DNA of 64,000 nt, taken from the NCBI GenBank assembly GCA_039193195.1, contig JBCCWS010000001.1, positions 69,338 through 133,337 on the forward strand, given 5' to 3'. A program made the translations under genes and the position numbers. Below are positions 36,473-52,366 of the stretch, piece by piece. Positions within the stretch are counted from its first letter, which is position 1. Every line of letters starts with the position of its first letter. Origin of the DNA: Pseudomonadota bacterium. Lineage in GTDB: Bacteria; Pseudomonadota; Gammaproteobacteria; Steroidobacterales; JBCBZW01. Below the pieces are notes generated by a model, which was not told the DNA's origin, ran no database searches, and was given only the letters and a program-made list of their open reading frames with translations.

Positions 36473-36937
36473 ATGTCTGCAGCCCAATCCCCTCGCGCCG
36501 GGGCACCGTCCATCGTGTATCGCTACGGGGCCCTCGCTTGGGTCTGGCGCGCCCTGATCGCTGTGGCCTTCTCCCTGACCGGTGCGGCCCTGCTCCTGTC
36601 CTTCAAGATTGGAGATTGGGGTCTCGTCTACGTGGCTTTGCCTATGTTCATACCGGCCGCCGTCGGCGGCTGGGTCACCGTGACGCGCATCGAGGTCCCC
36701 GCTGGCGAGCGCAGCGTGCTCCAGGTCAGTAACCTCCTGGGCGTGCCGAGGCGAATCGAGCGCCGGCGCCTGCGGGGCACATGGAAGCGGGACACGGTCT
36801 ACGGCACCTATGGGCAGCCGATTCCCGCACCGCGCCTTTGGGTCTGGGTGCGTGGAGGCATGCCCCTGTACCTCGATCTCTTAGCGCCGCTCGTCGATCG
36901 CAGCGCCCTCCAGTGCCTGATCAGCACCGGTTCCTGA
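36473..36937 (+). CDS. Membrane protein with two TM helices and a small beta-rich C-terminal domain (bacterial PH-like?)
   Basis: SD ggagg 8 nt upstream of ATG 36473. TM helices LAWVWRALIAVAFSLTGAALLL and LVYVALPMFIPAAVGGWV. Confidence 0.55.
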   Translation: MSAAQSPRAGAPSIVYRYGALAWVWRALIAVAFSLTGAALLLSFKIGDWGLVYVALPMFIPAAVGGWVTVTRIEVPAGERSVLQVSNLLGVPRRIERRRLRGTWKRDTVYGTYGQPIPAPRLWVWVRGGMPLYLDLLAPLVDRSALQCLISTGS

Positions 36938-36997
36938 GCCGATTTCGAGTTCCCCCACGCCTGAAGGAACAACCCTCACACGAATCGACGGAGCTAG

Positions 36998-37894: not shown

Positions 37895-38518
37895 ATGAGC
37901 GCTGTAGACTCCACCGTTCACGGCGGCGTAGGTACACGGGTCCTGCGTACTACGAGCTTGTACACCGTGGCCGCTTGGTGCGCCGCGCTCGGTGCCCCAG
38001 AGCTGCTGCCAAGCTTCGGCCTCGAGGGCGATGTGTACGTGCGCTGGATTGCGCTCGGTGCTGCCGCCAGCGTGCCGATCGTGGCGCTTAGCGCCTGGTG
38101 CTGGGAGCGTGCTTGGCACCGTACTTGCGCAGGCCCAGCGCCGTCGCCCGCTCAGTCACCGACGATCGCCATGGAGCCTACCGTCGCGACCATCGGCAAG
38201 GCGGCCATCTCCATGCAATGGCGAGGCGAGCTGCATCACTTCGACCAAGACCTCGTCATCGGGCGTGCCCCGAGCTGCTCCCTGCACCTGGACGACCCGC
38301 AGATCTCCCGCCGCCATGCAGCCATCGAGTATCGCCGCGGCCGCTGGGTACTGAAGGATCTCGGTTCGCGCAACGGAACACGCCTCGATGGGCAGTTGAT
38401 CGACGGCCAGGTGGTGCTCGGTGCTAAGGGCCGGATCGACTTCTACGAAGGCGGTGTGCCCTTAGTCGTGCACACGGGGCTCGGCGGCGCGACAACTGTC
38501 AGCGACAGTACTGATTGA
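37895..38518 (+). CDS. Membrane-anchored FHA-domain protein
   Basis: Two N-terminal TM segments. FHA core LVIGRAPSCSLHLDDPQISRRHAAIEYRRGRWVLKDLGSRNGTRLDG. Confidence 0.8.
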   Translation: MSAVDSTVHGGVGTRVLRTTSLYTVAAWCAALGAPELLPSFGLEGDVYVRWIALGAAASVPIVALSAWCWERAWHRTCAGPAPSPAQSPTIAMEPTVATIGKAAISMQWRGELHHFDQDLVIGRAPSCSLHLDDPQISRRHAAIEYRRGRWVLKDLGSRNGTRLDGQLIDGQVVLGAKGRIDFYEGGVPLVVHTGLGGATTVSDSTD

Positions 38519-40982
38519 GTCGCTCCTCCACAGGTTCCAGACCGCCGGCAACATCGGCTGCAGACAGGGTTGCCCCCGCCCGTTGTAGTCCTCGGTAGAG
38601 GGTTTGCGCGTGACGGTAGTAGGGGCAGCCATCGGCCGCCACCCCGTCGGCCGCTGCAATGTCACCGAAATCGGTCAGGGCGATCGCCTGGTCGCGGATC
38701 AGCGCGTCGTTTTCCTCCTCATCCTCCGCCAGCTTGCGGAACGTGGCTACGGCGGTGTCGATGCTGCTGCGCGCCTCCTTATGTCGCTCGAGACCGGAAA
38801 GCGCCTTGGCGACCTGTTGGTGGGTGAGGCCTAGGTTGCGTCGGTTCTGCGCATCGCCCGGCTCCGCGATGACGAGCGTCTGGGCTGCCGTGCGGCTAGC
38901 GATGCCGTAGCGCAGCGCCTCGTCGAATTGCTCGAGGGAGGCGTGCAAGTTGCCTAAGTTGTGATTGAAGCGGATCAGTTGCACTAGGAACTGAACGTTC
39001 TCCGGCTCCTCGGCGGCGCGTTCCTCGTAGAAATGTAGGGCCTCGAGGTAGTCAGGGATCGCGGCTTGAGCGTTGCCTGCGTCGGCGTAGGTCTCCCCGC
39101 GCAGGCCGTAGGCGTAGGCGCGCTTGCCAGCCCAGTTGCGCAAGTTCTCCCGCCAGTCGGATTGCTCCAGCTGAGGCAAGTACTCGCCAAGCAACCCTAG
39201 TGCGTCGTCGAAGTTGCGCGCCCATACGAGCACCTTCACCAGGTCGATGCGAAGGTTCCAGCGTCGACTCTGGAGCGTCCAGTCCGCGTCGCCCAGCCGT
39301 GCTAGGGTGCGATCGGCCAGGGTCAGGCCTTCGCGCGCATGTGCCTGCGCCACGTCGGTATCCATGTCGTAGTGGAGCGTGTGGTTGGTGGCGAGCCGCT
39401 TGACCCAAACCATCTCTGCCACCGCTTGGGCGTTGTTGGGTTCGAGCGTAATCAGCTTCTCGAGGGCCAGCTCTGCCTTCTCCAGTTGCTCCAAGCCCTT
39501 CTGGTTCTGTCCTAGGCTGGAGACCCCGAGCCCAGCGAATACATCGTATAGGCGAGAGTAGTTCGAGCCAATGTCCAGCAGTAGATCCGGTGGTGCGGAA
39601 GGGTCGGCTGCGAGCTCATCTAGGAAGCGCTCACCTGTAGCGGCAAGCTGCTCCCGGGCCGGGAGCGTGCCCTGCACATGGGACATGCGATCGTACACGT
39701 CGTACAGCACCTCGCGAGCTAGCTGCCGCGCCTGGCCGAAGCGCGCTTCGGCTCGTTGCTGTGCTTCGGTGGCTGCTTGGTATTGCACTAGGGTGACGGC
39801 GTAGGCCACGGCGAGCGCCGTGCCCGCAAGCACAGCGCTGGCCACTGCTAGGCGTCGGCGGCGAATGAACTTTCCCAACCGATAGGTAAGCGAATCACCC
39901 TTGGCGTGCACCGGGAACCCACTGAGGTAGCGGCGAAGATCATCAGCGAAGGCGGCGACGGAGGGGTAGCGCCTGCTAGGTTCCTTCGCCATCGCCTTTA
40001 GCACGATGGCGTCGAGATCACCACGTAGGCGTCCCCAGTCGGGCAGATCGCGCCGGCGTGCCCGCTGGCTAGGGGCATCTGGGCGCCGCTGGGTAATCAC
40101 CTGCTCGTACTGTGCTGGCGAGAGGCTCTCGGTCTCGAAGGGGCGTTCGCCCGTCAGCATTTGGTAGAGAGCAACCCCCAGCGAGTAGACATCCGTGGCG
40201 GTGGTAAGGGGCTCGCCGCTGACCTGTTCGGGGCTTGCGTAGGCGGGCGTCAAGAGCATGGCCACCGTCTCCTCGCCAGTTTCCTTCGGCAGCAGTGAAC
40301 GTGCGATACCGAAGTCTAGGAGTTTAGGTTCGCCGCCCGCGCTCACCAGCACGTTGCTCGGCTTGATGTCGCGGTGGATCACCAGTGCTCGGTGGGCGTG
40401 TTCGACGGCCGAGCAGACTTTCAGGAACAGCTCGATGCGCTCTGGGATGCTCGAGGGATGAGCGCGCAGGTAGACATCGAGGGGATCGCCGTCGATGTAC
40501 TCCATTACCACGAAGGGCAAGCCATCTTCGGTGGTGCCACCGTCGAGGAGAATGGCGATTCCCGGATGGCGCATGTCCGAGAGAATTTGGCGCTCGCGCT
40601 CGAACTGAGCGACGGCCCGGCTGCCGATGGCGGAAGCGCGGATCACCTTGACGGCCACCTTGGCGTCGAAGGCACCGTCGTCGCGCTGGGCGAGGTACAC
40701 CTGACCCATTCCACCTTCGCCGATGAGCTCGAGCACTCGATAGGGGCCGATGCGCTTGCCCGTGAGCTGTTGCTCGGCGCAGCGCACCATCAGTGTGATC
40801 TCCTCCTCCCCCATACCGGTCTCCTGAGCGGCGGCGCTGATCAGGCGATCGGCGCGTGAGCGCAGGAGTGCCGGGCAGTGCGCATCTAGCCAGTTGCCGC
40901 GTCGGGCCTCTGGAACATCGAGGGCGCTCTCCACCAACCTCAGCAGTTGTTTTCCCGTGTCATGGGAGTCGGGTTTTGTCAT
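38499..40982 (-). CDS. Ser/Thr protein kinase with one TM helix and a long TPR-repeat C-terminal region
   Basis: GEGGMGQVYLA glycine loop, VAVKVI, HRDIKPSNVL catalytic loop, DFGIA, PAYASPEQ. TM LAVASAVLAGTALAVAYAV. TPR-like repeats to the C-terminus. Confidence 0.9.
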   Translation of the reverse strand: MTKPDSHDTGKQLLRLVESALDVPEARRGNWLDAHCPALLRSRADRLISAAAQETGMGEEEITLMVRCAEQQLTGKRIGPYRVLELIGEGGMGQVYLAQRDDGAFDAKVAVKVIRASAIGSRAVAQFERERQILSDMRHPGIAILLDGGTTEDGLPFVVMEYIDGDPLDVYLRAHPSSIPERIELFLKVCSAVEHAHRALVIHRDIKPSNVLVSAGGEPKLLDFGIARSLLPKETGEETVAMLLTPAYASPEQVSGEPLTTATDVYSLGVALYQMLTGERPFETESLSPAQYEQVITQRRPDAPSQRARRRDLPDWGRLRGDLDAIVLKAMAKEPSRRYPSVAAFADDLRRYLSGFPVHAKGDSLTYRLGKFIRRRRLAVASAVLAGTALAVAYAVTLVQYQAATEAQQRAEARFGQARQLAREVLYDVYDRMSHVQGTLPAREQLAATGERFLDELAADPSAPPDLLLDIGSNYSRLYDVFAGLGVSSLGQNQKGLEQLEKAELALEKLITLEPNNAQAVAEMVWVKRLATNHTLHYDMDTDVAQAHAREGLTLADRTLARLGDADWTLQSRRWNLRIDLVKVLVWARNFDDALGLLGEYLPQLEQSDWRENLRNWAGKRAYAYGLRGETYADAGNAQAAIPDYLEALHFYEERAAEEPENVQFLVQLIRFNHNLGNLHASLEQFDEALRYGIASRTAAQTLVIAEPGDAQNRRNLGLTHQQVAKALSGLERHKEARSSIDTAVATFRKLAEDEEENDALIRDQAIALTDFGDIAAADGVAADGCPYYRHAQTLYRGLQRAGATLSAADVAGGLEPVEERLNQYCR

Positions 40983-41064: not shown

Positions 41065-41619
41065 ATGAGTGACATCACCCAAGTGCTCCAGAACTGGTCG
41101 CAGGAGTCGTCGGAGGAGCGTGGTCGCGTGGTGGCGGCCATGTACGATGAGCTGCGGCGAAACGCCGTATCCCATCTGCGCAACGAGCGCCACGGAGATC
41201 TGCAACCCACTTCGTTGGTCAACGAAGCATTCATGCGGCTAATCAACATAACGCGCATCGACCTGAAGGGGCGAAACCACTTCCTAGGCCTCGCCGGGCG
41301 GATCATGCGCGAGATTCTGGTAGACGAAGCTCGCAAGCTGCGTGCCGCCAAGCGCGACCATGGCCTGCAGACCCGCTTCACGGGCGAGCACATGGGCGGC
41401 GACATGCCGGTGAGCGACTTGCTCGAACTTGATGAGCTGCTCAACGGGTTGGAGGCGATCGACCCCGTCTATGTGAAGCTCTTCGAAGCTCGCGCCTTCG
41501 CCGGCATGACGATCGAAGAAGCAGCCGAGGTGCTGGAGATGTCCCCGGCCACGGTGAAGCGCAAGTGGAAGGTCGCCATGGCCTGGGTGCGCGAACATAT
41601 GGGCGAGCCTACTGAATGA
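41065..41619 (+). CDS. ECF sigma factor of the TIGR02999 / ECF43-like (kinase-associated) type
   Basis: N-terminus MSDITQVLQNW..., YDELRRNAVSHL, LQPTSLVNEAFMRL (region 2), and region 4 FAGMTIEEAAEVLEMSPATVKRKWKVAMAWV. Divergent STK neighbour, with no anti-sigma gene adjacent. Confidence 0.9.
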   Translation: MSDITQVLQNWSQESSEERGRVVAAMYDELRRNAVSHLRNERHGDLQPTSLVNEAFMRLINITRIDLKGRNHFLGLAGRIMREILVDEARKLRAAKRDHGLQTRFTGEHMGGDMPVSDLLELDELLNGLEAIDPVYVKLFEARAFAGMTIEEAAEVLEMSPATVKRKWKVAMAWVREHMGEPTE

Positions 41620-42253
41620 CGATGGCCTGCTCCCAGATCTGAGCGATCTGCGAGAAGGGGACAGGTTGCGTGTAGTACGCCATCGGATCGTTGATGATCA
41701 GCATCGGCTCCATGGTGCCAAAGGGTGTCGGCATCCACGCCATACCGCGCAACACCACCACGTGCCCGGAGAACGGTGAGCTTTTTACGGCCATGATGAT
41801 CGCCTTACCCGCCGCAAGCGTCTGATACAGAGTCATCGGATCCGTAGGGTGTTGCACCGAGGAGTGCCTGCCGCCGTACTCGGCGATCAGGCCCTGAATC
41901 TGAGGTAGCTGTCCGGTGACCGTGCAGTTGGCTGGATTGGCGCAGCAGGTGTTGGGGTGCTGGCCGTAGGCGCGGGCCACTAAGGCGCACTGGGGCGGCG
42001 TCGCCTGGGGACCGTGCGTGGCCAGGATGATCTGCTGTGCCACCGCCGCCCAGCACCAGACTTGAGTCTCCTGCGGGATGTTCTGGATCGGCAGGTCAAC
42101 GGGGGGCGGAGGCTGCTGCGCTTGAGTCGGCCCCCAGCCCGGCGTGTGGCCAGGCTGGGAGTAGGGGGGTTGCGCCAGGGTGAGGCTGCTCGCTAGCAGT
42201 AGCACAAGGGCGGTGCAACGCGCGATGCTGCGCACGGCCGTGGTGCCCGTCAT
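41609..42253 (-). CDS. Secreted papain-fold cysteine peptidase (C39-like / C70 AvrRpt2-like)
   Basis: Signal peptide CTALVLLLASSLTLA. Q....WCWAAVAQQI candidate nucleophile context and downstream SGHVVVLRG candidate His. Start set at M9 (42253). Confidence 0.6.
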   Translation of the reverse strand: MTGTTAVRSIARCTALVLLLASSLTLAQPPYSQPGHTPGWGPTQAQQPPPPVDLPIQNIPQETQVWCWAAVAQQIILATHGPQATPPQCALVARAYGQHPNTCCANPANCTVTGQLPQIQGLIAEYGGRHSSVQHPTDPMTLYQTLAAGKAIIMAVKSSPFSGHVVVLRGMAWMPTPFGTMEPMLIINDPMAYYTQPVPFSQIAQIWEQAIVIQ

Positions 42254-42270
42254 CACACGGTGATGGCAGC

Positions 42271-42810
42271 TCACCACTCCCCGTCCGCTTCGTTACCGTC
42301 GATGACCACTTCAACGGCCTGATTCCAGCCCGTGTTCGGGCCCTGCGGGCCGTAGCCAGGTGCCTGGGGCCCGTAGCCCGGCGTCTGGGGTCCGTACCCG
42401 GGCGCCTGCGGACCTTGCGGGCCGTAGCCCGGCGTTTGGGGCCCGTAGCCCGGGGCGTGAGGGCCTTGCGGGCCGTAGCCTGGAGTCTGAGGCCCGTAGC
42501 CGGGTCCTTGCGGGCCGTACCCAGGACCTTGAGGGCCATAGGGAGCGGGCTGCGGGCCGGCGGGACCATAGCCTGGCCCGTTGCTAGGCACGGCGGCGCA
42601 GCCGCCGTTGCTGCCCGGTCCCGCCGTGGGGAGCATGCCCGGTGGGCACTGAGAGTAGGCCTGCTGGTTGCCCCAGGGCTGATTGGCGTACGGATCGCCG
42701 AGCATCCCCTGCTGCTCCGCCCAAAAGTATCCGCCCATACCCACCGCGATGGCGGCGATGAGGACGATTCGCTGTTGGCCGGTGAGTGTCTTTAGCTTAT
42801 TTAGGTCCAT
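42271..42810 (-). CDS. N-terminally membrane-anchored low-complexity protein with about 11 tandem PGYGPQ repeats
   Basis: TM IVLIAAIAVGMGGYFWA. Repeats (G/A/T)PGYGPQ span aa 77-160 (nt 42331-42582). Confidence 0.6.
   Translation of the reverse strand: MDLNKLKTLTGQQRIVLIAAIAVGMGGYFWAEQQGMLGDPYANQPWGNQQAYSQCPPGMLPTAGPGSNGGCAAVPSNGPGYGPAGPQPAPYGPQGPGYGPQGPGYGPQTPGYGPQGPHAPGYGPQTPGYGPQGPQAPGYGPQTPGYGPQAPGYGPQGPNTGWNQAVEVVIDGNEADGEW
42331..42582 (-). repeat. Coding tandem repeat (degenerate 18-27-nt units, core GGGCCGTAGCCNGG on the plus strand) encoding PGYGPQ units
   Basis: Repeated core seen directly about 11 times on the plus strand. Confidence 0.8.
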
Positions 42811-42883
42811 TGTTTTCGCTCCGGTGTGATGCCCGTTTCCCTAGGCGCACGAGGGGCGCCGATCGGCTCATGGGCAGATCGCG

Positions 42884-43297
42884 TTAGAGGTTGCCCTGGT
42901 AGTAATCCGGGTCGGGGTTCACGTAGCCAGGCTGCGGATACATGGCGCTGTCCATGCCTGGCGATAGGGCGGGGTAGGCGCCGGACTGCCCCGTCGGGCC
43001 GGGATAGCCGGGTTGGGGATAGCCGTTCGCTGGGTAACCCTGCTGGGGGTAGCCCGGCTGTGGGTAGTAGGCGGCGCCGGGGCCCTGCTGCATCAGGCCG
43101 TTCATTTGCTGCATCTCGAGCATCATCTGCTGCTGCTGCTGTTCGAGTTGCTGCTGCATCCAGGTTGCGGACTCCTGGGCCTGCTGCTGCATGGCCGCGT
43201 TCTGCGCCGCCACGCTGAGGGGGCCGGCCAGCTTGGCCAAGACGATCAGGCCGATGATGCCGAGGAGGAAGAGTTTTGGGAGGACGCTGCTGTTCAT
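42884..43297 (-). CDS. Signal/anchor-bearing low-complexity protein: Gln-rich coiled segment followed by a (Q)PGYP Tyr/Pro/Gly-rich tail
   Basis: ATG 43297. LFLLGIIGLIVLAKLAG, then MQQQAQESATWMQQQLEQQQQQMMLEMQQMNGLMQQ, then YYPQPGYPQQGYPANGYPQPGYPGP. Confidence 0.55.
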   Translation of the reverse strand: MNSSVLPKLFLLGIIGLIVLAKLAGPLSVAAQNAAMQQQAQESATWMQQQLEQQQQQMMLEMQQMNGLMQQGPGAAYYPQPGYPQQGYPANGYPQPGYPGPTGQSGAYPALSPGMDSAMYPQPGYVNPDPDYYQGNL

Positions 43298-43453
43298 GGC
43301 CTGGTGGCTCCGGTGGTCTGGGGGCTGTATCGGTCTAGGCGCGAGCGCGGGGGATTTCGGCTCACGCAGCGTGTGGCGATGGTGCGTGAGCTGATTCGCG
43401 CCTGCTCCGCGCCTAAGGGAGCAACCCATCCCCAAGAACGAGCGGAGCCGATC

Positions 43454-44299
43454 ATGACTGCCACCGAACCCACCATCGCCTGTCCCAAGTGCGCAAACCC
43501 AAATCCGCTCGGCGCCAAGTTCTGCAGCAGCTGCCGGGCTCCCCTGGGCGTCGCCACTGCGCCTCCGGGCCCTGCCGCCGCGCCGCCCCCGCGTCCCGCC
43601 GCGGGCCTCGCCGGCATGGTGGGTGCGGGCGCCGGCAAGAGTGAGACTCGCCAGCTACAGGCGGACGCGGCATCCGTCTTCGAGCACCTCTCCAACGGCC
43701 TGCGCAACCGCGGCGGCCAGGTGCAGCAGGAGATGCCGATGCAGTTGAATATCAAAGTGCCTTACAAGAGCTTCTGGCTCACGTTGGGCGCGGTGATCCA
43801 GGTCGATACCGCCATGCAGGTGGTGCCGACAGCGGCCGGCCAATGTCAGGCCACGCTCACCACCAAGACCGATGGCAGCAGTTTGAACAACGTGTGGACG
43901 TGGTTCGCCGTGTCTTTCACGATCCTGCTCTTCTTGAACCTCTACATCTTCCCTATCATCATTCTGCTGGGAGCGGTCAGCGCCTTCTTCAACCACCGCC
44001 AGCTCAACAGCCAGCCTGGCGCAAAGATCACCGAAGAGCTCTTCGCCGATCTCAACAACAACCTATCGTCCTTGACAGCCAGTGCGGATCAAGCCACTCA
44101 ACCCGCGCCTGGACCTAGCCTCCAACCAGAGCCGCAACCCGCGCCACAGGCCAGCAACTGCGCAAGCGAAGAGAAGCAGGGACTCGAGCAGGAAGAGGTC
44201 TTTGACCGCTTGGCTAAGCTCGCCAAGCTGCGCGAGATGGGCGCGGTGACGGAGGAGGAGTTCGACGCCAAGAAGGCTGAACTTCTCAAGCGCATCTAG
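43454..44299 (+). CDS. Zinc-ribbon / TM / SHOCT-domain protein
   Basis: N-terminal CPKCANPNPLGAKFCSSC. TM region VWTWFAVSFTILLFLNLYIFPIIILLGAVSAFF. C-terminal SHOCT-like EEVFDRLAKLAKLREMGAVTEEEFDAKKAELLKRI. The track's N-terminal extension is antisense to the previous gene. Confidence 0.65.
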   Translation: MTATEPTIACPKCANPNPLGAKFCSSCRAPLGVATAPPGPAAAPPPRPAAGLAGMVGAGAGKSETRQLQADAASVFEHLSNGLRNRGGQVQQEMPMQLNIKVPYKSFWLTLGAVIQVDTAMQVVPTAAGQCQATLTTKTDGSSLNNVWTWFAVSFTILLFLNLYIFPIIILLGAVSAFFNHRQLNSQPGAKITEELFADLNNNLSSLTASADQATQPAPGPSLQPEPQPAPQASNCASEEKQGLEQEEVFDRLAKLAKLREMGAVTEEEFDAKKAELLKRI

Positions 44300-45798
44300 T
44301 GGCGAGCGAAGCGGTCGCGCAGTACTGCGTCGCCTGCGGTCATACCCTGCAGGTCGGCGCCAGCTTTTGCACCGAGTGCGGGCACGAGATCGGCAAGGTG
44401 CCGGCGGCAACCGGCAGTTGGCAGGCGCCGCAGATGCTCGGCGGCACCTGCACGACCTGCGGCGGCGACGGCTCCCTGCTCGAGGCAAGCCAGGTCTACT
44501 GCCCAAGCTGCCGCTGGCTGCGCCCCCTAGGCGAGGACTACTTCGTCGACCTCGACGCCTTCATTTGGCAAATGGACGCTCAGGCCATGCAGGCGCTCAA
44601 CAGCACGGGCGCCGTTGCGAGCGCAGCGCACTCCATCGCCGAGCGCTACGGTCGTCCGGTCTTCGAGGCGGCGACCAATGGTATACGCCTCTCCGAGCGG
44701 CAAATGCCAGAGATCTTCGACATTGCGATCCGCGCGGCGCGTTTGCTGTCGCTATCGCACATGCCGGAGGTGTACATCTCCGGCCAGCGCATGTGGGACG
44801 TCTACTCGCTCGGGGGCTTCAGCGGCAGCTTCGTCTCGATAGGCAGCGTCTTGATTAACTTCAAGCCGAAGGACCTGTTGTTCCTGATCGCCCGGGAGAT
44901 GGGCCACGTGCGGGCGGGCCACGTGTACTGGTCCACCGCGATGCAGTTTCTCATGGGGCAGTCCAAGGGCCAGGGGACGATCCTTGGGGAGGGTGTGTTT
45001 CAGTTCTTAAACCCCACCAAGATCATCGAGTCTGCGATAGAAGCGCCGATGATGCGCTGGGCCCGTCACTCGCAGATCACGGCGGATCGTGCCGCGGCGC
45101 TGGTGACTGGGGACATCGACACGGCACGCCGGGTGTTGACCCAATGGGCCATGAAGTCCTTCCCGGTCGCGGGCAAGATGAATCTCGACGCCTGGCTTGA
45201 GCAGGAAGCGGCGGCCGACGATCCCTACCTCAAGCTGTCCGAGTGGACGATGTCCACCGAGCCCTATCTGGCGCCACGGTTGAAGTCCCTGAACGCGTTC
45301 GTGCACTCGCAGGCCTTCCTCGAGTGGTTCGCGTACATCCAACACTGGAGCGAGCAAGCAGGCCTTCCCTCGTTTGACGATGGTGCCGCGAAGAAAGCCA
45401 AGCGCGCTAAGCCCGCGCCATCGCCGCCGCCGAACACGGAGAGGATCGAGTGTCGGGCCTGCGGTGAGGCCATGCGCGTGCCCACCCACATCCTGGAGGG
45501 CGACAAGCCCGTCAACGTGCGCTGCCCGAACAAGGCCTGTCGCAAGGTACTGCGGGTCAAGCCGAGGAAGAGGCGGACGGCGAGCGAGGAGTCCCCACGA
45601 ACCCGTCGTGCGCGCGAAAAGGTCAAGCTCAACTGCGCTGCCTGTGGGGAGGCGATGATGGTGAACCGGGCGGATCTGGCGGGAGATGAACCCGTCAACG
45701 TGCGCTGCCCGAACGCCGCGTGCGGCGAGATTCTCACGATCAAACCGAAGAGGCGCGATGACGCATCGACCAATCGACCGGATCTGATGGCGGACTAG
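44299..45798 (+). CDS. Double zinc-ribbon protein with an M48-like peptidase domain carrying a degenerate HExxH (REMGH) and two C-terminal zinc-ribbon repeats
   Basis: CVACGH..CTECGH and CTTCGG..CPSC. FLIAREMGHVRAGH at 44893-44907. Duplicated C(R/A)ACGEAM...PVNVRCPN(K/A)AC modules. The GTG start overlaps the upstream TAG by 1 nt. Confidence 0.65.
   Translation: MASEAVAQYCVACGHTLQVGASFCTECGHEIGKVPAATGSWQAPQMLGGTCTTCGGDGSLLEASQVYCPSCRWLRPLGEDYFVDLDAFIWQMDAQAMQALNSTGAVASAAHSIAERYGRPVFEAATNGIRLSERQMPEIFDIAIRAARLLSLSHMPEVYISGQRMWDVYSLGGFSGSFVSIGSVLINFKPKDLLFLIAREMGHVRAGHVYWSTAMQFLMGQSKGQGTILGEGVFQFLNPTKIIESAIEAPMMRWARHSQITADRAAALVTGDIDTARRVLTQWAMKSFPVAGKMNLDAWLEQEAAADDPYLKLSEWTMSTEPYLAPRLKSLNAFVHSQAFLEWFAYIQHWSEQAGLPSFDDGAAKKAKRAKPAPSPPPNTERIECRACGEAMRVPTHILEGDKPVNVRCPNKACRKVLRVKPRKRRTASEESPRTRRAREKVKLNCAACGEAMMVNRADLAGDEPVNVRCPNAACGEILTIKPKRRDDASTNRPDLMAD
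45508..45714 (+). repeat. Intragenic duplication: 24-bp perfect copies (cccgtcaacgtgcgctgcccgaac) at 45508-45531 and 45691-45714, within two 61-aa-spaced zinc-ribbon modules
   Basis: Identical 24-mers read directly. The flanking protein sequence is similar but diverged. Confidence 0.85.
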
Positions 45799-45811
45799 GG
45801 GAGGCCGATCG

Positions 45812-46315
45812 ATGAGCGAAAGAGAGCCACCGCAGGAGTTTGAAGTCTACCTCGCTGAGGATGGGCATCAGGAAGTGCCGGCGGAGGGTTTCGTCCCGCA
45901 AGAGGGTGTTGTTGTGGAGCGCGCTGCCTCCGCGCGCGACAGCGTTGCCCCGAGCGCTCAGGGCGCTGCGAATTCCGCCCAGAGTCAAGCGCAGGCATTT
46001 CAGGCTGCTCAAGCCAATGCCCAGGTTCAGCAGAGCCTAGCCGAGAGTGAGGTGGCTGCGGCCGATCTGCTCGCTGAGGAGCAGGCGCGGGAGCGCGAGG
46101 AAGAGCACCGACTCGAGGTGGAGATCGCTGAGGATCAGCGCCAGGAAGCCCTCGAAGCGCAAGCCGATGCCGAGGCGGAGCGCCTGGAGGCGCAGGAGGA
46201 GCGCGCCCGAGAAGAGCAGGCGCGTGAGCGGGAGGAAGCAGAGGCCCGCGAGCGGGAAGAGCAAGAAGAGGACGAGGACGACGCGCAAGACGACGGATCG
46301 GACCTCTACGTTTGA
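45812..46315 (+). CDS. Glu/Arg/Ala/Gln-rich coiled-coil-like acidic protein (167 aa)
   Basis: SD ggggagg upstream. EEQAREREEEH / EERAREEQAREREEAEAREREEQEEDEDD low-complexity tail. 13 nt after the previous stop. Confidence 0.5.
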   Translation: MSEREPPQEFEVYLAEDGHQEVPAEGFVPQEGVVVERAASARDSVAPSAQGAANSAQSQAQAFQAAQANAQVQQSLAESEVAAADLLAEEQAREREEEHRLEVEIAEDQRQEALEAQADAEAERLEAQEERAREEQAREREEAEAREREEQEEDEDDAQDDGSDLYV

Positions 46316-46377
46316 GCCAATCCGCCGGTCGTGCACGCCTAGGCAGATAGGCACCCGAACCAACCGAGGAACGTCCC

Positions 46378-46959
46378 ATGGCCGAATTACGTTTCACTGA
46401 CATCGATCGCCCTGAACCCGGCACCGCCGAGGCCGTCGAAGCGGAGTACGAAGTCGAGCTCGCCGGTCTGAACGACAACGAGAGCGCTCAGGTAAAGGAG
46501 GCCATCAGTGAGGCCGAGTTCAACAACGAGCTCGATCAGTTGGACGTGAGCGAAGAGCTGCAGCAGGCCCAGTTTGCCGAAGAGGACCGAGCCGCCGCGG
46601 AGACCTTGCGTGAGGAGCAAGTGGAAGCCGCTGACGTTGGCAACTACGACGCGGCGCGCGAACGCGCTGAACAGGTTCGCGAAGAGCTACGCGAATCCAG
46701 CGACGAACACGGCGGGCAACTCGACGCGGCGCTGGCAGAGAACGCGCACGACGTGGAAGTGCTGAGCGAAGCGGACTTCCAGCAGGAGAACGCCGAGTTC
46801 TTCGAGAATGCGGTAGTGGATATGCCGAGTGCCGAGGGCGTCGATGGGGCCGTGGACGACGCTTGGGATGCGCAGGATGCTGCGGACGACGCGGCTGCGG
46901 ACAGCACGGATTTCGCCGACACGGGCGGCGATAGCTCTATCTACACCGACGTTAGCTAG
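46378..46959 (+). CDS. Highly acidic hypothetical protein (193 aa)
   Basis: SD gagga upstream. D/E/A-rich, with no TM. Confidence 0.5.
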   Translation: MAELRFTDIDRPEPGTAEAVEAEYEVELAGLNDNESAQVKEAISEAEFNNELDQLDVSEELQQAQFAEEDRAAAETLREEQVEAADVGNYDAARERAEQVREELRESSDEHGGQLDAALAENAHDVEVLSEADFQQENAEFFENAVVDMPSAEGVDGAVDDAWDAQDAADDAAADSTDFADTGGDSSIYTDVS

Positions 46960-46964
46960 GCCCC

Positions 46965-47270
46965 ATGAGCAGGCAGCGCAGCGGGCGTTGGATCGAGGCC
47001 GTCCCGGCGAATACGGCGCGCGCCGAACAGCGTCGCGCCCAGGTCACAACGCCGCCTGCGCACTCAATACCCGGCGACGGCAACCCGCCGTTAGGGGGTG
47101 AGGATGTGCAGCCACCGCCAGTGCAGGGCGAGCGCCTCATCGAGGCCAAACCCTCGGACGCCGGCGCAGACGATCACCCCGTAGATGAAGACGGCTCAGC
47201 GAGCGACCTAGACGATCAGGCGCAGGGCCATTCCCCTGACGTCCTCTGCGACCCTTCCGACGAAGATTAG
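46965..47270 (+). CDS. Small acidic/Pro-rich hypothetical protein (101 aa)
   Basis: ATG 5 nt after the previous stop suggests coupling. The composition is weakly protein-like. Confidence 0.35.
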   Translation: MSRQRSGRWIEAVPANTARAEQRRAQVTTPPAHSIPGDGNPPLGGEDVQPPPVQGERLIEAKPSDAGADDHPVDEDGSASDLDDQAQGHSPDVLCDPSDED

Positions 47271-47277
47271 TGTCACC

Positions 47278-48180
47278 TCAGGCCCTGCGGGCGGATGCCC
47301 CGAAGTTTGGATCGTAGGGTCCGCCATCGCCGAGCGCGAGATGGCGTGCTCGCACCAGGGGCTTGCGCTGCTCCTTGCGCTCGTTGAGGGACCTGTCCGC
47401 TCGGGTCAGCGCGATGGAGATGTCTTCCTCCTCCTCGAGCCAGGTCGTGCCGATACTGCAGCGGACCGCGGTAGGGCCCGTGCCCGACCTGCGCGGGGCG
47501 GACAAGGTCAGTGAGGTGCACTGCGTTTGTAACGCGTGTTCGAGGCACTGTGCTTCGCCATGCGCGGCGCTGACGACGAAAGCGAACTCATCGCCGCCGA
47601 GACGACCGACTATCCCGTAGTCGCCGATGAGGGCTTCGAGCGCCTCGCTCACGCGCACCAGCGCGCTGTCGCCGACTTCGTAACCGAATCTGTCGTTTAG
47701 TGCCTTAAAATGATCAATATCGACCATGCCAATCAAGCAGCTTTGCGTGGAGCGGCGCTCGCTATGTAGGCGCGCGACGGCGGTAAAGAAACCTCGTCGG
47801 TTATAGGTACCGGTGAGTGGATCGGTGGTCGATAGGTGAAGCGCCAGGGCCAGCGTGTTGTCCAGATGCCCCAACAGGCGCACGATCAGCAGCGTGGCCG
47901 CGGGTGCTACCACCGCCGGTATCAGACCGGCTAGGGCGAAGGCGAAGCGGGTATCTTGTGTGGTGAAGGCCCCGGCACGAATCTGGGCAGCGAGGCCCAC
48001 CGCCGTAAGGGCCTCGGACATCACGATCGAGAAGACCGTCACGCAGGCGATGATGCCGCCGCCGCCAACATCGCGGTACACGCTCAGGAGGCGGCTATTC
48101 AGCCTATCGAGGGTCAGTTCGTGGTCTTCTTGGGTCACGCTACTCTCCACCCCGTAAGTCGCGAGGCGAGAGGCTGGCAC
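47278..48180 (-). CDS. Membrane-anchored diguanylate cyclase (intact GGDEF, no RxxD I-site)
   Basis: N-terminal TM helices. LTGTYNRRGFF and GRLGGDEFAFVV. Confidence 0.85.
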   Translation of the reverse strand: MPASRLATYGVESSVTQEDHELTLDRLNSRLLSVYRDVGGGGIIACVTVFSIVMSEALTAVGLAAQIRAGAFTTQDTRFAFALAGLIPAVVAPAATLLIVRLLGHLDNTLALALHLSTTDPLTGTYNRRGFFTAVARLHSERRSTQSCLIGMVDIDHFKALNDRFGYEVGDSALVRVSEALEALIGDYGIVGRLGGDEFAFVVSAAHGEAQCLEHALQTQCTSLTLSAPRRSGTGPTAVRCSIGTTWLEEEEDISIALTRADRSLNERKEQRKPLVRARHLALGDGGPYDPNFGASARRA

Positions 48181-48367
48181 TACCGACGGCTGAGCGAAAC
48201 GCGGTAGATCGCAGTCTTGGATTAGGCCGCGAGCGATCGCAGGGTTCGATGCCCGAAGTGTGACGGTAGTCGGTAGCGTAGCGGCGCAGCGAGATCGTGA
48301 TTTTCTGTAAAGCGAATTATTCTGTTAGCCTTACAGTAGGCGATTCGTGCCAGCCGGGCGGCTAGGG

Positions 48368-49588
48368 TCAGGATGCGCAAACCTGCACGGTCTCGCCGAT
48401 GTCGTTGAGGATATGTCGCAGGTGGTCGTAGTCCGGATGGCGAACGCGCATCCAGGCGCCGGCCATGTAGCCACCCTCGACGGAACCTGCGGGCGCTCCG
48501 GGGCTCGGGATGTTCGCGGCCACAATGTCGTTATGGTAGCGCTTGCCGATTTCATCGAGACCCTCCACGTGGGTGACGCGGCCGTCGCGGTCGGCGCGCA
48601 GGGCGATCATGCCGCAGGCGAAGCGACGCGAGGGTCGCTGTACGGTGCGCCCGTGACAGACGGCCATGGCCCAGTCGCGGTACAGATCGATGTCGTTGCC
48701 CGCGTTGTACACATCCCACTGACACACGCCCGGTGGCCGGCAGCCGATCTCTGAGAACTTAAGCCCCTTCGGCCCGATGAACCACTCCATGTGGGTGGCG
48801 GCCGTGGGGATGCCGAGCACGTCGATGACCTTTTGCGCCATCGCTTTGACCTCACTGTACCCCTCCGCGTCCACTCGGTTGGTGGCCACCATCTGGGGTG
48901 AGATCCAGCGCGTGCGCATGGCCTCGAGCACGTTCGGGTAGTAGTGGGTGATGAACTCGTAGGCGATCTGACCGTTCACGGTGATGGTGTCGAGGAAGCC
49001 CTCGTGGCCTTCGATGAACTCTTCTACCGCTGTCGGCGCGCCGCGGTCGACGCCGCTCTCGCTGATCGCCACCTTGAGCTCTTCATTGGTACGGGCCTTC
49101 CAGGTGCCGGCCGCGCCGGCCGCGGCACGCGGCTTCAGGATCACCGGCAGGCCGACCTCGTCGACGAAGTCACGCACTTCCTCGGCGGAGCTGGCGCCGG
49201 TGGAGAGGGCGCAGGGCACGCCGGCAGCCCGCAGCACTTCCTTCATCGCGGGCTTATCGCGGCAGAGGTAAGCGGTGCGCGCGGAGACGCCCGGGATGCC
49301 GCAGCGTTCACGGACGTTCGCCGCGGCCTCCACGTGGGCTTCCACGGTCGCTTCCAAGCGATCGACCCAGAGGCGACTCTGCACGTTGCGCACCGCCTCC
49401 TCGAGCTGACGCTCGTTCACTACCGAGCCGATCTGCACGTAATCGAACAGCCAGCTCGAGAGCTGCGGATCGAGCCAGTCTCGCGGACGTTCGCCGATGC
49501 CGATCACCGTGGCGCCGGCGGCGTGCAGGCCGCGCACGAACTCGCGCTGGTTGGCAGGGAAACAGGGTTCGACGAAGATCACGTTCAT
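48368..49588 (-). CDS. ATP-grasp domain ligase (carboxylate-amine/thiol ligase superfamily)
   Basis: Pre-ATP-grasp Rossmann-like N-terminus. Central CRDKPAMKEVLRAAGVPCA...LPVILKPRAAAGAAG...VEEFIEG...EIGCRPPG pattern typical of ATP-grasp enzymes. Confidence 0.8.
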   Translation of the reverse strand: MNVIFVEPCFPANQREFVRGLHAAGATVIGIGERPRDWLDPQLSSWLFDYVQIGSVVNERQLEEAVRNVQSRLWVDRLEATVEAHVEAAANVRERCGIPGVSARTAYLCRDKPAMKEVLRAAGVPCALSTGASSAEEVRDFVDEVGLPVILKPRAAAGAAGTWKARTNEELKVAISESGVDRGAPTAVEEFIEGHEGFLDTITVNGQIAYEFITHYYPNVLEAMRTRWISPQMVATNRVDAEGYSEVKAMAQKVIDVLGIPTAATHMEWFIGPKGLKFSEIGCRPPGVCQWDVYNAGNDIDLYRDWAMAVCHGRTVQRPSRRFACGMIALRADRDGRVTHVEGLDEIGKRYHNDIVAANIPSPGAPAGSVEGGYMAGAWMRVRHPDYDHLRHILNDIGETVQVCAS

Positions 49589-49626
49589 GGCGTCACCACA
49601 GCGGATGCTGATTGAGTTAGCGGAAG

Positions 49627-51120
49627 TTATAGGTTGCGCATGCGCGCGTAGACGTGGAGGTACTCGCGGGCGCGGCGGGGCCAGCTGAAGTCAGCGCGCA
49701 TGCCGTTGTCCATCATCTTGCGCCAGTGGTTGGGCTGGCGCCAAAGGCTCAGGGCCCGCTCGATGGCCCAGATCACGCCCCCCGAGTCGAAGTGGTCGAA
49801 GACGATGCCGTTGCCTTCGCCGGAGCCGGTGTCGTACTGCTCCACCGTGTCGGCGAGCCCGCCCGTGCGCCGCACGATGGGGATGGTGCCGTAGTTCAGG
49901 CTGTACATCTGGTTCAGGCCGCAGGGCTCGTAGCGCGAGGGCATGAGGAACATGTCGGCCCCCGCCTCGATGAGGTGGGCGAGGCGCTCGTTGTAGCCTC
50001 GGTAGAAGCAGACGCGGCCTGGGTAACGGCTTTGGAGGCTCGCGAAGAACTCCTCGTACTTGCCCTCGCCGCTGCCGAGCACGGTCACCTTCATCGGGTG
50101 GCGCTCCAGCAGGTGGGGCAGGGAATCGAAGAGGATCTCGAGGCCTTTCTGGTAGGTGAGGCGCGTGACCATGCCGAGCACGGGGGTCTTCTCATCCACC
50201 GTCGGGTTGCCGCTGCTGATGCCGAGCGCTTGCAGCAGCGCTACCTTGTTGTCGGCCTTGCCGGCGGGTGCGTCCGCGGAGTAGGGCTGCTCGAGGTGCT
50301 CGTCTTCCTCCGGGCTCCACACCTCCGTATCGATACCGTTCAGGATGCCGACGAAGGTGGCGTGGCGCGCGCGCAGCATATCGTCGAGGCCTTCGCCATG
50401 CTCGGGCGTTTGTACCTCCCGGGCGTAGGTCGGGCTCACCGTCGTGAGTGCGTGGGCGTGCAAGACGCCGGTCTTCAGGAAGGACATGACCCCGCGCCCC
50501 AGGTCCTCCTGATGCACCTGGTTTCGGTGTTCGCTCAGCCCGACGTCTACCACTGCCTGCTCGCCGAACCAGCCCTGGTAGGCCATGTTATGGATCGTGA
50601 GCAGGGAGCGTGTCCGATAGAACAGGCTGTCCCAAGCGAACAATGTTCTCAGGTAGAGCGGGATTAGGCCGGTCTGCCAGTCGTGGCAGTGGACCACGTC
50701 CGGGTCGAAGCCCATGCGTTGGCAGCACTGCAGCGCCACGTGCGAGAGCACGGCGAAGCGCAGGTGCTCGTCGACGTCGTTGGTGTACAGGGCGCCGCGG
50801 TGGTAGAGCACGGGGCAGTCGATCAGGTAGATCCACAGGCCTGAGCCCGGCAGGGGCACCGTGTACACGTTGCAGATGTAGTCGTGGGGGCCGAGTTGCA
50901 CGCGCAGGTTTTGCAAGAACTCCACTGGCACGAAGTAGGCCTGGCTACGATCGATCGTGTCGTACAGCGGCATGAAGATGCGCTGCTCGACACCTAGGTC
51001 GTGTAGGTGCCGCGGCAGGGCCGCCGCCACATCGCCGAGCCCGCCCGCCTTGGCAAAGGGGGCGAGCTCAGAGGTGACGTGAACGACGCGCAAGGTGGCG
51101 TCGCGGTTCTCCTCGCTCAT
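49627..51120 (-). CDS. glgA: Glycogen synthase (ADP-glucose type, GT5)
   Basis: VVHVTSELAPFAKAGGLGDVAAALP N-terminal signature and C-terminal LMPSRYEPCGLNQMYSLNYGTIPIVRRTGGLADTV. Confidence 0.95.
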   Translation of the reverse strand: MSEENRDATLRVVHVTSELAPFAKAGGLGDVAAALPRHLHDLGVEQRIFMPLYDTIDRSQAYFVPVEFLQNLRVQLGPHDYICNVYTVPLPGSGLWIYLIDCPVLYHRGALYTNDVDEHLRFAVLSHVALQCCQRMGFDPDVVHCHDWQTGLIPLYLRTLFAWDSLFYRTRSLLTIHNMAYQGWFGEQAVVDVGLSEHRNQVHQEDLGRGVMSFLKTGVLHAHALTTVSPTYAREVQTPEHGEGLDDMLRARHATFVGILNGIDTEVWSPEEDEHLEQPYSADAPAGKADNKVALLQALGISSGNPTVDEKTPVLGMVTRLTYQKGLEILFDSLPHLLERHPMKVTVLGSGEGKYEEFFASLQSRYPGRVCFYRGYNERLAHLIEAGADMFLMPSRYEPCGLNQMYSLNYGTIPIVRRTGGLADTVEQYDTGSGEGNGIVFDHFDSGGVIWAIERALSLWRQPNHWRKMMDNGMRADFSWPRRAREYLHVYARMRNL

Positions 51121-51124
51121 CGCG

Positions 51125-52366
51125 TCAGGCCGCGCCGCCTTCCTCGGCGAGGTAGTGCTGGATGCGGTTCCAGAACAGCTCCGTGAACTCCTCGTGCTCG
51201 TGCTCGGGGAACAGGGCCTTCACCTTCTGGTTCACCGCGTCCCGCGCCATCGGCGAGGAGAAGAACTCGGCCGCCACTTCATCTAGGTGGGAAAGGTGCT
51301 TGTCGCAGAATTCCTCGAAGCGGTCGGTTTCGAAGCGCAGGCGGGCAATCTTGGCGTAGGCGCGCAGGCGCTCGCGGTAGGGCAGATCCTGCTCGGCGAT
51401 CTTGTAGTAGGGATCGAAGTTCAGGTTCGAGTGAAAGCGACGATCCGTCGCCGCGCAGAAGATCGACCAGCGAAGGTTGGCCTTGATCAGCCACGGGAAG
51501 TGGTAGTGCAGGGAGGTGACCTGCGAGTCCGGGCAGGCGTTGGCGTAGTCGATCGGATGCCACACGGTGCCCTGGCGCAGGGCCTCGCAGCTGTTGAAGT
51601 CCCAGCCAAAGAAGCTGTTGATCGTGAGCGTCATGTCTTCGAGGAGCGAGGCGTCCTCGGCGCTCAGGAAGTCGTGATCCATCGTGTAGCGGTCGTGCAG
51701 GGGAGCACTCGGCGCGTAGTTCACCAGGCGGATCTGCGGCCCCAGGCCCACGGCGCGGATGTAGAAGTCATGCGGGAGCACGGCCTTTTGCACGTTCATC
51801 ACCGTCTTGCCGCTCGCGTCGTAGGCGGCCCGCAGCTGCTCCGAGTTGTCGGCCTTGGTCACGCCCACCCAGCCGCCGCCGTGGTACGGCTTCATGAAGA
51901 CGGGGTAGCCGATTTGCTCGCCGATCTCATCGAGGTCGAAAAGCTTGGCGTAGCGTCCCAGGGTGACGTCCAGGTCTGCCGAGGATTCGTACTCCTTAGC
52001 CGGGATCATCCAGGTACGGGGCACGGGGAGCCCTAAGCGCATCATGGCGCAGTAGGTGGTCTGCTTCTCCATCGACTGCAGCGACCAGGGATTGTTGTAT
52101 ACGTAGAGGTCATCGAGGATCACGGACTTCTTGATCCACTCGCGGGTGGGCGAATACCAGTGCGTGAGGCGATCGATCACTACCTCATACCTGCAGGGCT
52201 GCTGCAGATCGAAGGGTTCGATGGTCACCCGCTCGCTCTCGAAGCGCAGCGTGTCGCCCCCCATGGGCACGCGCAGGTCGAGGCGCTGCAGAATCTCCTC
52301 GTAGCAAATCGGCCAGCACACGTCGGCCCCGAGCGAGAGCCCAATCAGTCTCGTTACCTCAGCCAC
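51125..52366 (-). CDS. ATP-grasp-like protein (RimK/glutathione-synthetase-like fold, divergent) with a C-terminal helical extension
   Basis: EKQTTYCAMMRLGLPVPRTW...GYPVFMKPYHGGGWVGV...NVQKAV resembles the ATP-grasp central/ATP-binding segments. 4 nt upstream of glgA. The family assignment is tentative. Confidence 0.6.
   Translation of the reverse strand: MAEVTRLIGLSLGADVCWPICYEEILQRLDLRVPMGGDTLRFESERVTIEPFDLQQPCRYEVVIDRLTHWYSPTREWIKKSVILDDLYVYNNPWSLQSMEKQTTYCAMMRLGLPVPRTWMIPAKEYESSADLDVTLGRYAKLFDLDEIGEQIGYPVFMKPYHGGGWVGVTKADNSEQLRAAYDASGKTVMNVQKAVLPHDFYIRAVGLGPQIRLVNYAPSAPLHDRYTMDHDFLSAEDASLLEDMTLTINSFFGWDFNSCEALRQGTVWHPIDYANACPDSQVTSLHYHFPWLIKANLRWSIFCAATDRRFHSNLNFDPYYKIAEQDLPYRERLRAYAKIARLRFETDRFEEFCDKHLSHLDEVAAEFFSSPMARDAVNQKVKALFPEHEHEEFTELFWNRIQHYLAEEGGAA

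Follow-up and report, generated by a model that had tools for sequence, protein, structure and literature searches.

A putative kinase- and sigma-factor-controlled module that couples a degenerate M48 peptidase fold to a zinc-ribbon/SHOCT protein and hyper-acidic proteins

What does a bacterium gain from a row of genes that joins a metallopeptidase fold and zinc ribbons to proteins built largely of acidic residues? The question is raised by five genes, g1 to g5, on the forward strand of a 64,000-nucleotide (nt) stretch of contig JBCCWS010000001.1 (assembly GCA_039193195.1, positions 69,338 to 133,337; hereafter the window), from a Pseudomonadota bacterium of the gammaproteobacterial order Steroidobacterales. 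Gene g1 (43454–44299) encodes a protein with a zinc ribbon, a hydrophobic hairpin and a SHOCT domain; the product of g2 (44299–45798) has four zinc ribbons placed around what appears to be an M48-fold pseudo-peptidase core; g3 (45812–46315) encodes an acidic protein; g4 (46378–46959) encodes another, which is the third conserved core component; and g5 (46965–47270) encodes a small acidic, Pro-rich protein. NCBI names for proteins of these types are limited to "M48 family metalloprotease" and "hypothetical protein". A first-pass annotation, made from the sequence alone, had described a single operon with disordered acidic products and suggested an envelope-stress or matrix function. We find that g1–g5 lie within a compact island of ~10 kb (36.9–47.3 kb) centred on a Hanks-type kinase and a sigma factor of the extracytoplasmic function (ECF) class that resembles group ECF43, and that the genes look like a conserved response module controlled by this kinase and sigma factor.

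The gene layout of the first-pass annotation was borne out. The TAG stop of g1 and the GTG start of g2 have one base in common, and the following gaps measure 13, 62 and 5 nt. A Shine–Dalgarno-like run had been proposed at each junction; such runs are clear before g1 (GGAG), g3 (GGGGAGG) and g4 (GAGGAA) but weak ahead of g2 and g5. It had also been considered that the acidic open reading frames (ORFs) could be antisense shadows of genes on the other strand. Composition alone is ambiguous on this point, because the GC content at third codon positions (GC3) is even higher in the frame directly antisense to g3 (0.88) than in its sense frame (0.69); a 227-residue minus-strand ORF at 45795–46478 has a GC3 of 0.40. 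The coding strand was assessed by counting substitutions at each codon position against orthologues in two close relatives with identical gene order, L085 and L086, whose M48-like proteins are 91% and 86% identical to g2. Substitutions are in excess at the third position of the sense codon in all five genes, with counts at positions 1/2/3 of 9/11/79 in g4 and 28/26/79 in g3, and the ratio of nonsynonymous to synonymous substitution rates (dN/dS) is 0.04–0.29, as expected under purifying selection. Both non-coding sequence and an antisense-shadow origin of g3–g5 are therefore excluded: g1–g5 are protein-coding on the forward strand, and the minus-strand ORFs are the shadows.

Relatives of g2 were scanned with one genome per species, which yielded 249 loci, 80 of which were kept, and family counts were obtained by iterative hidden Markov model (HMM) searches of all ORFs in 86 loci. 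The kept loci derive from Pseudomonadales and other Gammaproteobacteria; from Caulobacterales, Hyphomonadaceae, Sphingomonadales and other Alphaproteobacteria; and from Gemmatimonadota, Acidobacteriota (Pyrinomonadaceae, Blastocatellia) and Planctomycetota. A g1-family gene is found directly upstream of the g2 relative in 60 of the 75 loci having upstream DNA, and a g4-family gene downstream of it in 78 of 82. The g1/g2/g4-family triad is a unit conserved across phyla, and the first-pass question of whether the zinc-ribbon/SHOCT gene and its M48-like partner co-occur elsewhere is answered by a widespread pairing. In Acidobacteria and Planctomycetes, the g4 domain forms the C-terminal part of one acidic protein of about 320–450 residues, and the start of this acidic gene overlaps the M48 stop by 8–14 nt, suggesting that the two are translationally coupled. 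Relatives of g3 (10 loci) and g5 (9 loci) occur in the Pseudomonadales group only, and both genes appear to be accessories of the module; in Terricaulis, the equivalent place is taken by small acidic ORFs whose N-terminal motif is similar. In two Pseudomonadales loci (L002, 8572–9339; L009, 2234–2971), genes for a 173-residue membrane protein and a helix-turn-helix-like protein of 69–79 residues sit between g3 and g4. In Asticcacaulis biprosthecium C19 (L081), whose genome is the only one found to carry the module that is not metagenome-assembled, the peptidase gene, g1, two extra hairpin-protein genes, g2 and four downstream genes are all co-directional, and three of the four genes downstream of g2 encode acidic proteins. 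Within 6 kb of the module, the 86 loci hold a sigma factor of the same ECF type in 25 cases, a Hanks kinase in 28 and a papain-like Cys peptidase in 19, so placed that the sigma factor/kinase pair and the peptidase adjoin the module in several phyla.

The second member of the triad, g2, combines a peptidase fold with zinc ribbons. Residues 138–333 match Peptidase_M48 (PF01435) with 35.8 bits against a cut-off of 20.3, and DZR (PF12773) matches with 29.0 bits against 27.3, the cysteines at 10/13/24/27 and 51/54/68/71 being conserved. Altogether, 16 Cys residues make up four ribbons, two N-terminal and two C-terminal with basic linkers, and the protein has no transmembrane (TM) segment. The first-pass description of a DZR start, an M48-like core and two further ribbons agrees with both the Pfam scores and this cysteine pattern. 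The C-terminal ribbons show weak, sub-threshold similarity to ribbons of the MJ0042 type, namely to Zn_ribbon_4 (E 0.019–0.05; 15.3 and 14.0 bits for a cut-off of 30.3), with further weak matches of a C-terminal ribbon to Zn_ribbon_5 (E 0.087) and to the AgmX/GltJ ribbon 7zok (E 0.044). The AlphaFold2 (AF2) model of g2 has a predicted local distance difference test (pLDDT) score of 77. Its top Foldseek matches in the PDB are ZMPSTE24 and Ste24 (E ~1e-3, probability 1.0, with a template modelling score, TM-score, of only 0.28–0.33), followed by abylysin.

What sets g2 apart from these enzymes is the zinc site. Where HExxH would be expected, g2 has R199-E-M-G-H203; in 120 of 120 homologues, the first His is missing and Arg stands in its place. 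The sequence is REMGH or REMGR in 114 of them and REMGH..HH or RQMGH in the other six; the second His is changed to Arg in 15. At the position of the third zinc ligand (the Glu of ExxAD), g2 has Q259, and the family has E in 74 cases, A in 28, Q in 16 and D in 2. Against this background of lost ligands, E200, H208 and D263 are invariant in a 22-sequence alignment of the family and H203 is nearly invariant, with E200 replaced by Gln in three other homologues. Because the first His is gone throughout the family, g2 is best read as a pseudo-peptidase without canonical zinc ligands, in line with the first-pass call. The nearest catalytically intact relative, the soluble protein WP_244348179.1 from a Thermus thermophilus plasmid, shares 34% identity with g2 in the core; HEFGH and the third-ligand Glu are preserved at the positions aligned to R199–H203 and Q259, and the protein has the AGH and TADRA motifs in common with g2 (xExGHxxAGH, xxTADRA). 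Since this protein retains the intact site together with both motifs, the g2 family is derived from an M48 subfamily with an intact zinc site, which was then lost in the family as a whole. On the Thermus plasmid (L087, 4562–6780), the gene is flanked on one side by an HNH endonuclease gene and on the other by a gene for a hypothetical, apparently membrane-bound protein, in an island rich in toxin–antitoxin genes; this context differs from that of g2 and is possibly defence-related. For the locus studied here, a defence system or mobile element was considered and rejected. PADLOC returned nothing for g1–g5 and, in the island, matched the kinase alone through generic kinase models; there was no phage match; and the plasmid matches were confined to M48 genes that are distant, keep the catalytic site and stand in another context.

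The g1 protein is arranged, in order, as a ribbon, a small central domain, a hydrophobic hairpin, a Pro/Ala-rich linker and a C-terminal SHOCT domain. The SHOCT domain (PF09851) is found at residues 251–278 with 34.8 bits against a cut-off of 27 and is also present in orthologues. The ribbon is a single CxxC..CxxC unit (C10, C13, C24, C27) that falls under the Pfam cut-offs: DZR reaches 20.3 bits where 27.3 are required and covers half the profile, and an NCBIfam '4-Cys prefix' domain found on kinases matches at E 1e-4, likewise under its cut-off. The first-pass architecture of zinc ribbon, TM helices and C-terminal SHOCT domain thus stands, except that the ribbon is single and not of the double DZR type. 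In a hydropathy scan, the 35 residues 147–181 are hydrophobic, with a Pro at the centre, and we read this segment as a helical hairpin crossing the membrane twice; both ends of g1 would therefore face the cytoplasm. The two extra genes between g1 and g2 in A. biprosthecium C19 (L081, 8992–10004; 178 and 159 residues) encode a small domain and a hydrophobic hairpin like the middle of g1, without ribbon or SHOCT, and look like paralogues of the g1 core. A connection to gas vesicles was rejected: the matches of g1 to GvpG (E 3e-5) and of g4 to GvpL/F (E 0.1) are both under cut-off, the GvpG match falls on the two helices of g1 that SHOCT also matches, and none of the neighbouring genes was recognised as a gvp gene.

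The three acidic proteins have net charges of −36 (g3), −49 (g4) and −13 (g5) and isoelectric points of 4.05–4.28, and the hydropathy scan found no TM segment in any of them. No NCBIfam model exists for g2–g5, and neither Pfam nor NCBIfam matches g4. The g4 sequence is not of low complexity; it shows 53–89% identity among 16 relatives, with many invariant positions. When 1.84 billion representative proteins were searched with a profile, 59 clusters of about 190–220 residues were returned, and some members carry the domain as the C-terminus of longer acidic proteins. The AF2 model of g4 (pLDDT 75.5, predicted TM-score 0.63) has helices across residues 17–177, and Foldseek against the PDB returned only generic or designed helical bundles, none of them an informative neighbour. 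The first-pass picture of an acidic, disordered trio without TM segments accordingly stands as regards acidity and membrane segments and fails as regards g4, which is predicted to be a folded helical bundle. Sequence motifs tie g3 to g4. In g3, an N-terminal EFEV-LA motif is followed by an E/R-rich low-complexity repeat and a C-terminal DG.D.Y motif, and g4 has the related motifs YEVELAGL and GD.SIYTD, so that an N-terminal, strand-like [FY]-E-[VI]-[ED]-[LI]-A motif and a C-terminal G-x-D-x-x-Y-(T)-D motif are common to both. The Thr residues in the TRYTD and SIYTD motifs of g4 are conserved and are candidate targets of the kinase. The conserved motif of g5 is W-[IV]-E-A-x-P-A ... A-x-V-x-T-P. 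Signal peptides are absent from all five products; for this reason, and given the g1 hairpin, the zinc ribbons and the SHOCT domain, g1–g5 are predicted to be cytoplasmic, and the matrix or extracellular role once proposed for them is unlikely.

Alignment of the regions upstream of g1 produced a bipartite motif, GAGCYGA-N15-CGCCTA, that recurs within the island. It lies 38 nt ahead of the g1 ATG (GAGCTGA-N15-CGCCTA, 43388–43415, forward strand) and, on the reverse strand as GAGCCGA-N15-CGCCTA, 38 nt ahead of the start codon of the neighbouring gene QQ (43336–43363) and 31 nt ahead of that of PGY (42842–42869). Copies with one mismatch occur on the forward strand in the g3–g4 gap, 36 nt ahead of the g4 ATG (GAGCCAA-N15-CGCCTA, 46314–46341), and 34 nt ahead of the start codon of a fourth acidic-protein gene, a0 (GAGCCGATTTCGAGTTCCCCCACGCCTG, 36936–36963). 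The exact motif has three sites in the window where 0.08 are expected. A generalised form, GASCYR-N16-CGCYTW, has four, all in the cluster, where 0.47 are expected, and none of 100 shuffles reached four. In 931 kb of related loci, this form has 41 sites, compared with 6.2 in shuffles, and most of them stand just upstream of g1, g4, or genes like QQ, PGY, the peptidase and a0; the positions are kept in Gammaproteobacteria, Alphaproteobacteria and Gemmatimonas. Motif-like sites ~2.6 kb upstream of the M48 gene in Terricaulis (L030, L039, L040, L049) lie beside unrelated genes and were not counted. The motif resembles an ECF promoter, with GA(G/C)CCG as −35 and CGCCT(A/T) as −10 element, and suggests at least four or five promoters of one ECF type in the island. 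The −35 elements of the divergent g1 and QQ promoters stand back to back at 43357–43394 as an inverted repeat, GGCTCAC...GTGAGCT, with arms 24 nt apart, which could serve as an operator for a dimeric regulator.

The copy in the g3–g4 gap bears on the operon structure. The corresponding site is a perfect match in both L085 and L086. The motif is found ahead of g4 in these two loci and in L001, L002, L006, L026, L042 and L045, as well as in Alphaproteobacteria; in L002 and L009, it is still directly ahead of g4 despite the inserted genes. A search for sigma-70 promoters and intrinsic terminators gave nothing above chance, with no intrinsic terminator seen between g3 and g4, and no Rfam family was found in 36–48.5 kb. 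The single five-gene operon of the first-pass annotation is consistent with the common strand, the short gaps and the missing internal terminator; because of the conserved promoter motif before g4, two units, g1-g2-g3 and g4-g5, are more likely, with read-through possible since no terminator separates them. The proposal that 41.6–47.3 kb forms one regulon gains from the motif ahead of g1, g4, QQ and PGY and from the recurrence of the sigma factor/kinase pair and the peptidase. By the same motif, the regulon appears to reach beyond those limits to 36.9 kb, taking in a0 and the FHA protein encoded next to it.

The remainder of the island comprises the likely regulators, a further acidic protein and a set of presumed envelope proteins. 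Gene a0 (36998–37882, forward) encodes a fourth acidic cytoplasmic protein of 294 residues with a net charge of −60 and a WFTEYGMPFTT motif; a homologue stands close to the module in 8 loci, among them those of Gemmatimonas (L010) and of other Gammaproteobacteria. Immediately 3' of it, on the same strand, is a gene for an FHA-domain protein with one TM-like segment (37895–38518). The Hanks-type Ser/Thr kinase gene (38499–40982, reverse) encodes a kinase domain followed by C-terminal TPR repeats, as assigned by Pfam, and has an N-terminal extension of ~75 residues ahead of the catalytic domain that matches no domain. A TM segment between the kinase domain and the repeats, read by eye from the translation, would place the TPR repeats in the periplasm. 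Divergent from the kinase gene is the ECF sigma factor gene (41065–41619, forward; PF07638, TIGR02999). In the sigma2.2 region of its product, QPTS takes the place of the DAED of other ECF factors (...GDLQPTSLVNEAF...), a replacement that marks ECF43, and the protein was classed as ECF43-like by inspecting this region against the motif descriptions in PMC8999054 and PMC13147305, not with ECF group HMMs. Members of this group are inactive until a neighbouring kinase phosphorylates a Thr in sigma2.2, and in the pairs EcfP/PknT and EcfK/PknS, the Thr-bearing motif is the phosphorylation site (PMC8999054, PMC13147305). No anti-sigma domain was recognised among the island neighbours. Adjacency suggests that the ECF43-like factor reads the promoter motif.

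Between the sigma factor gene and g1 are three reverse-strand genes. The first (41609–42277) encodes a papain-like Cys peptidase with an N-terminal signal or anchor (Peptidase_C70; C39_2 in relatives), and its 3' end overlaps that of the sigma factor gene convergently by 11 nt (41609–41619). The PGY protein (42271–42810) has an N-terminal hydrophobic stretch and a GYGPQ-repeat tail; the stretch was judged to be TM by eye from the translation and does not pass the hydropathy scan. The QQ protein (42884–43297) has a TM segment followed by a Q/P/G/Y-rich tail. A recurrent lipoprotein of the alphaproteobacterial clusters (L081, 12991–13677; L083, 7730–8401) joins a Q/P-rich low-complexity region to a C-terminal domain that is conserved, and it may be the counterpart of QQ and PGY. 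On the other side of the module (47278–52366), 8 nt separate the g5 stop from the end of a convergent GGDEF gene. An ATP-grasp/glycosyltransferase/D-Ala-D-Ala-ligase-like cluster follows, and L085 has the same order; no motif site was found in this region.

We tentatively prefer, at slightly less than even odds, a reading in which the kinase and the ECF43-like factor switch on a membrane-tethered scaffold where g1 is the anchor and a dead g2 holds the acidic proteins as clients. An envelope signal sensed at the TPR domain would activate the kinase, which would phosphorylate the conserved sigma2.2 Thr as in EcfP/PknT and EcfK/PknS, and the phosphorylated factor would then transcribe every unit of the island. 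A periplasmic arm would be formed by the Cys peptidase together with the anchored proteins whose tails are P/G/Y/Q-rich. The hairpin and SHOCT domain of g1 would make it an oligomerising anchor at the cytoplasmic side of the inner membrane, and g2 would be a catalytically dead adaptor whose retained peptide-binding groove and basic zinc-ribbon arms capture the acidic proteins, the shared terminal motifs of g3 and g4 being candidate docking motifs. The outcome would be a polyanionic, membrane-tethered assembly that might buffer polycations, organise other proteins or feed back on the pathway. Several observations weigh against this reading. The conserved E200 and H208, together with the usually present H203, are compatible with a rebuilt catalytic site in g2; the zinc-ribbon similarities fall short of family thresholds; and placing a strongly acidic assembly next to an anionic membrane poses an electrostatic problem unless the two are bridged by cations or by the basic arms of g2. 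On the regulatory side, the sigma factor is matched to the motif by adjacency only, no copy of the motif lies upstream of the ECF gene itself, and many, indeed most, module loci are without the sigma factor/kinase pair within 6 kb. The broader proposal that the g1/g2/g4 triad represents an unrecognised, phylogenetically wide class of polyanionic sub-membrane scaffold, and with it a new class of effector for ECF43/Hanks-kinase signalling, is doubtful in our estimation.

Other explanations use the same components differently. The acidic proteins themselves could be the effectors: a0, g3, g4 and g5, with charges from −13 to −60, would serve in the cytoplasm as induced polyanion sponges against cationic insults, for example cationic peptides, polyamines or metal ions, and the part of g1 and g2 would be only to position or stabilise these proteins at the membrane. 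Four hyper-acidic proteins under one promoter motif would suit this role, as would the response of EcfP/PknT to polymyxin and the resistance that it confers (PMC8999054), and no partner accompanies the M48-like gene more constantly than the acidic proteins do. A plain charge sponge, however, has no need of the position-specific conservation and predicted fold of g4, and ECF43 outputs vary by species, that of Xanthomonas being a type VI secretion system (T6SS; PMC13147305); we regard this explanation as unlikely. Somewhat less probable still is a g2 that remains an active peptidase, with a centre rebuilt from E200, H203, H208 and D263, and matures acidic pro-proteins or substrates instead of serving as a scaffold. 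The near-complete conservation of those four residues and the preserved M48 fold and groove speak for it, and the tight genetic coupling with acidic proteins bearing conserved terminal motifs would also fit an enzyme–substrate pair. They are offset by the Arg found at the first His in every homologue and at the second in 15 of 120, by the Gln that replaces the catalytic Glu in some (RQMGH) and by the A or Q at the third-ligand position in 44 of 120; moreover, H208, as part of AGH, also occurs in the intact Thermus enzyme, which makes it a feature of the subfamily and not a replacement ligand.

A further possibility is that g1, g2 and g4 tune the response, or bring it to an end, by binding to the kinase, the sigma factor or the FHA protein. 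ECF43 factors lack an anti-sigma factor, the module recurs beside ECF43-like/kinase pairs in four phyla, ECF regulons usually encode their own regulators (PMC7826278), and the g1 ribbon weakly resembles the kinase-borne domain noted above. Yet this feedback role is conjecture from context, most module loci have no such pair close by, and g1–g5 show no similarity to known anti-sigma domains; we give it little credence. Least credible of all is the first-pass view taken whole, namely a single operon of five genes whose disordered acidic products have an envelope or extracellular-matrix function. Co-directional genes with short gaps and no terminator between g3 and g4 speak for it, as do the neighbours with N-terminal TM or signal-like segments and a bulk that presumably lies in the envelope. 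It is contradicted by the conserved internal promoter motif, by the predicted fold of g4, and by g3–g5 lacking signal peptides and TM segments while their partners carry cytoplasmic zinc ribbons.

Comparison with known systems helps to place the preferred scaffold reading. The island resembles the ECF43/Hanks pairs EcfP–PknT of Vibrio parahaemolyticus and EcfK–PknS of Xanthomonas citri in that the ECF gene (PF07638, TIGR02999) adjoins the kinase gene, the DAED of sigma2.2 is replaced by an uncharged Thr motif (here QPTS), and no anti-sigma gene is recognised. It differs in its output, which is polymyxin resistance in the one pair and a T6SS in the other but here a zinc-ribbon/SHOCT/pseudo-M48/acidic module, and both phosphorylation and promoter recognition are putative for the pair in the island. 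With M48 peptidases such as Ste24/ZMPSTE24 and HtpX, g2 has the Pfam match and the fold in common. It departs from these and from the Thermus protein by RExxH and by the Gln in place of a third-ligand Glu that is variable elsewhere in its family, and it has no TM helices, bears four flanking ribbons and is always accompanied by acidic proteins. Some degenerate metallopeptidase domains are known to serve as adaptors or activators, for example the LytM-type EnvC and NlpD. Like them, g2 would be a protease fold that selection has maintained after the loss of the metal ligands, presumably because it binds and not because it cleaves; EnvC and NlpD are M23 proteins of the periplasm, whereas g2 is M48-like and predicted to be cytoplasmic.

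Parallels for the ribbons and the anchor are found among membrane-associated proteins. The zinc ribbon of ZitP binds the scaffold protein PopZ (PMC5182065), and in both ZitP and GltJ (AgmX), protein binding is the task of a short CxxC..CxxC ribbon in the cytoplasm; the C-terminal ribbon of g2 is weakly similar to this ribbon class. The proposed g1/g2/g4 scaffold might thus resemble zinc-ribbon/PopZ-type organising hubs, although the ribbon matches are sub-threshold (E 0.02–0.09) and g3–g5 have no PopZ homology, which makes this an analogy only. SHOCT-like domains have been proposed to place diverse cytoplasmic activities at the inner leaflet (PMC11237479). In the SHOCT assemblies of the phage-shock-protein (PSP) system described there, the domain is C-terminal and follows a TM segment, as in g1, and a context of metallopeptidase plus SHOCT-like domain is noted; unlike those assemblies, the g1–g5 island has no PspA, PspC or Toastrack and a different set of partners.

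Our literature search turned up no account of the module, the g4 family, the promoter motif or an M48 subfamily that is degenerate throughout. The component classes (ECF43/kinase pairs, M48 fold, SHOCT domain and zinc ribbons) are known, with the acidic families as the exception, and on the sequence evidence, we rate the locus as a probable new effector module and regulon for ECF43-type signalling. Phosphorylation-activated ECF43 factors are widespread, yet only two outputs are known, polymyxin resistance and T6SS. The locus would add a compact regulon with a conserved motif and a module of uncharacterised parts that recurs in at least five phyla, among them an M48 subfamily with uniform loss of the zinc site, a new acidic, predicted helical family outside Pfam and a zinc-ribbon/SHOCT anchor. 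Its interest rests on conservation across phyla and on direct testability, and it may provide a concrete system in which to ask what a bacterial pseudo-metalloprotease does and what purpose hyper-acidic cytoplasmic proteins serve.

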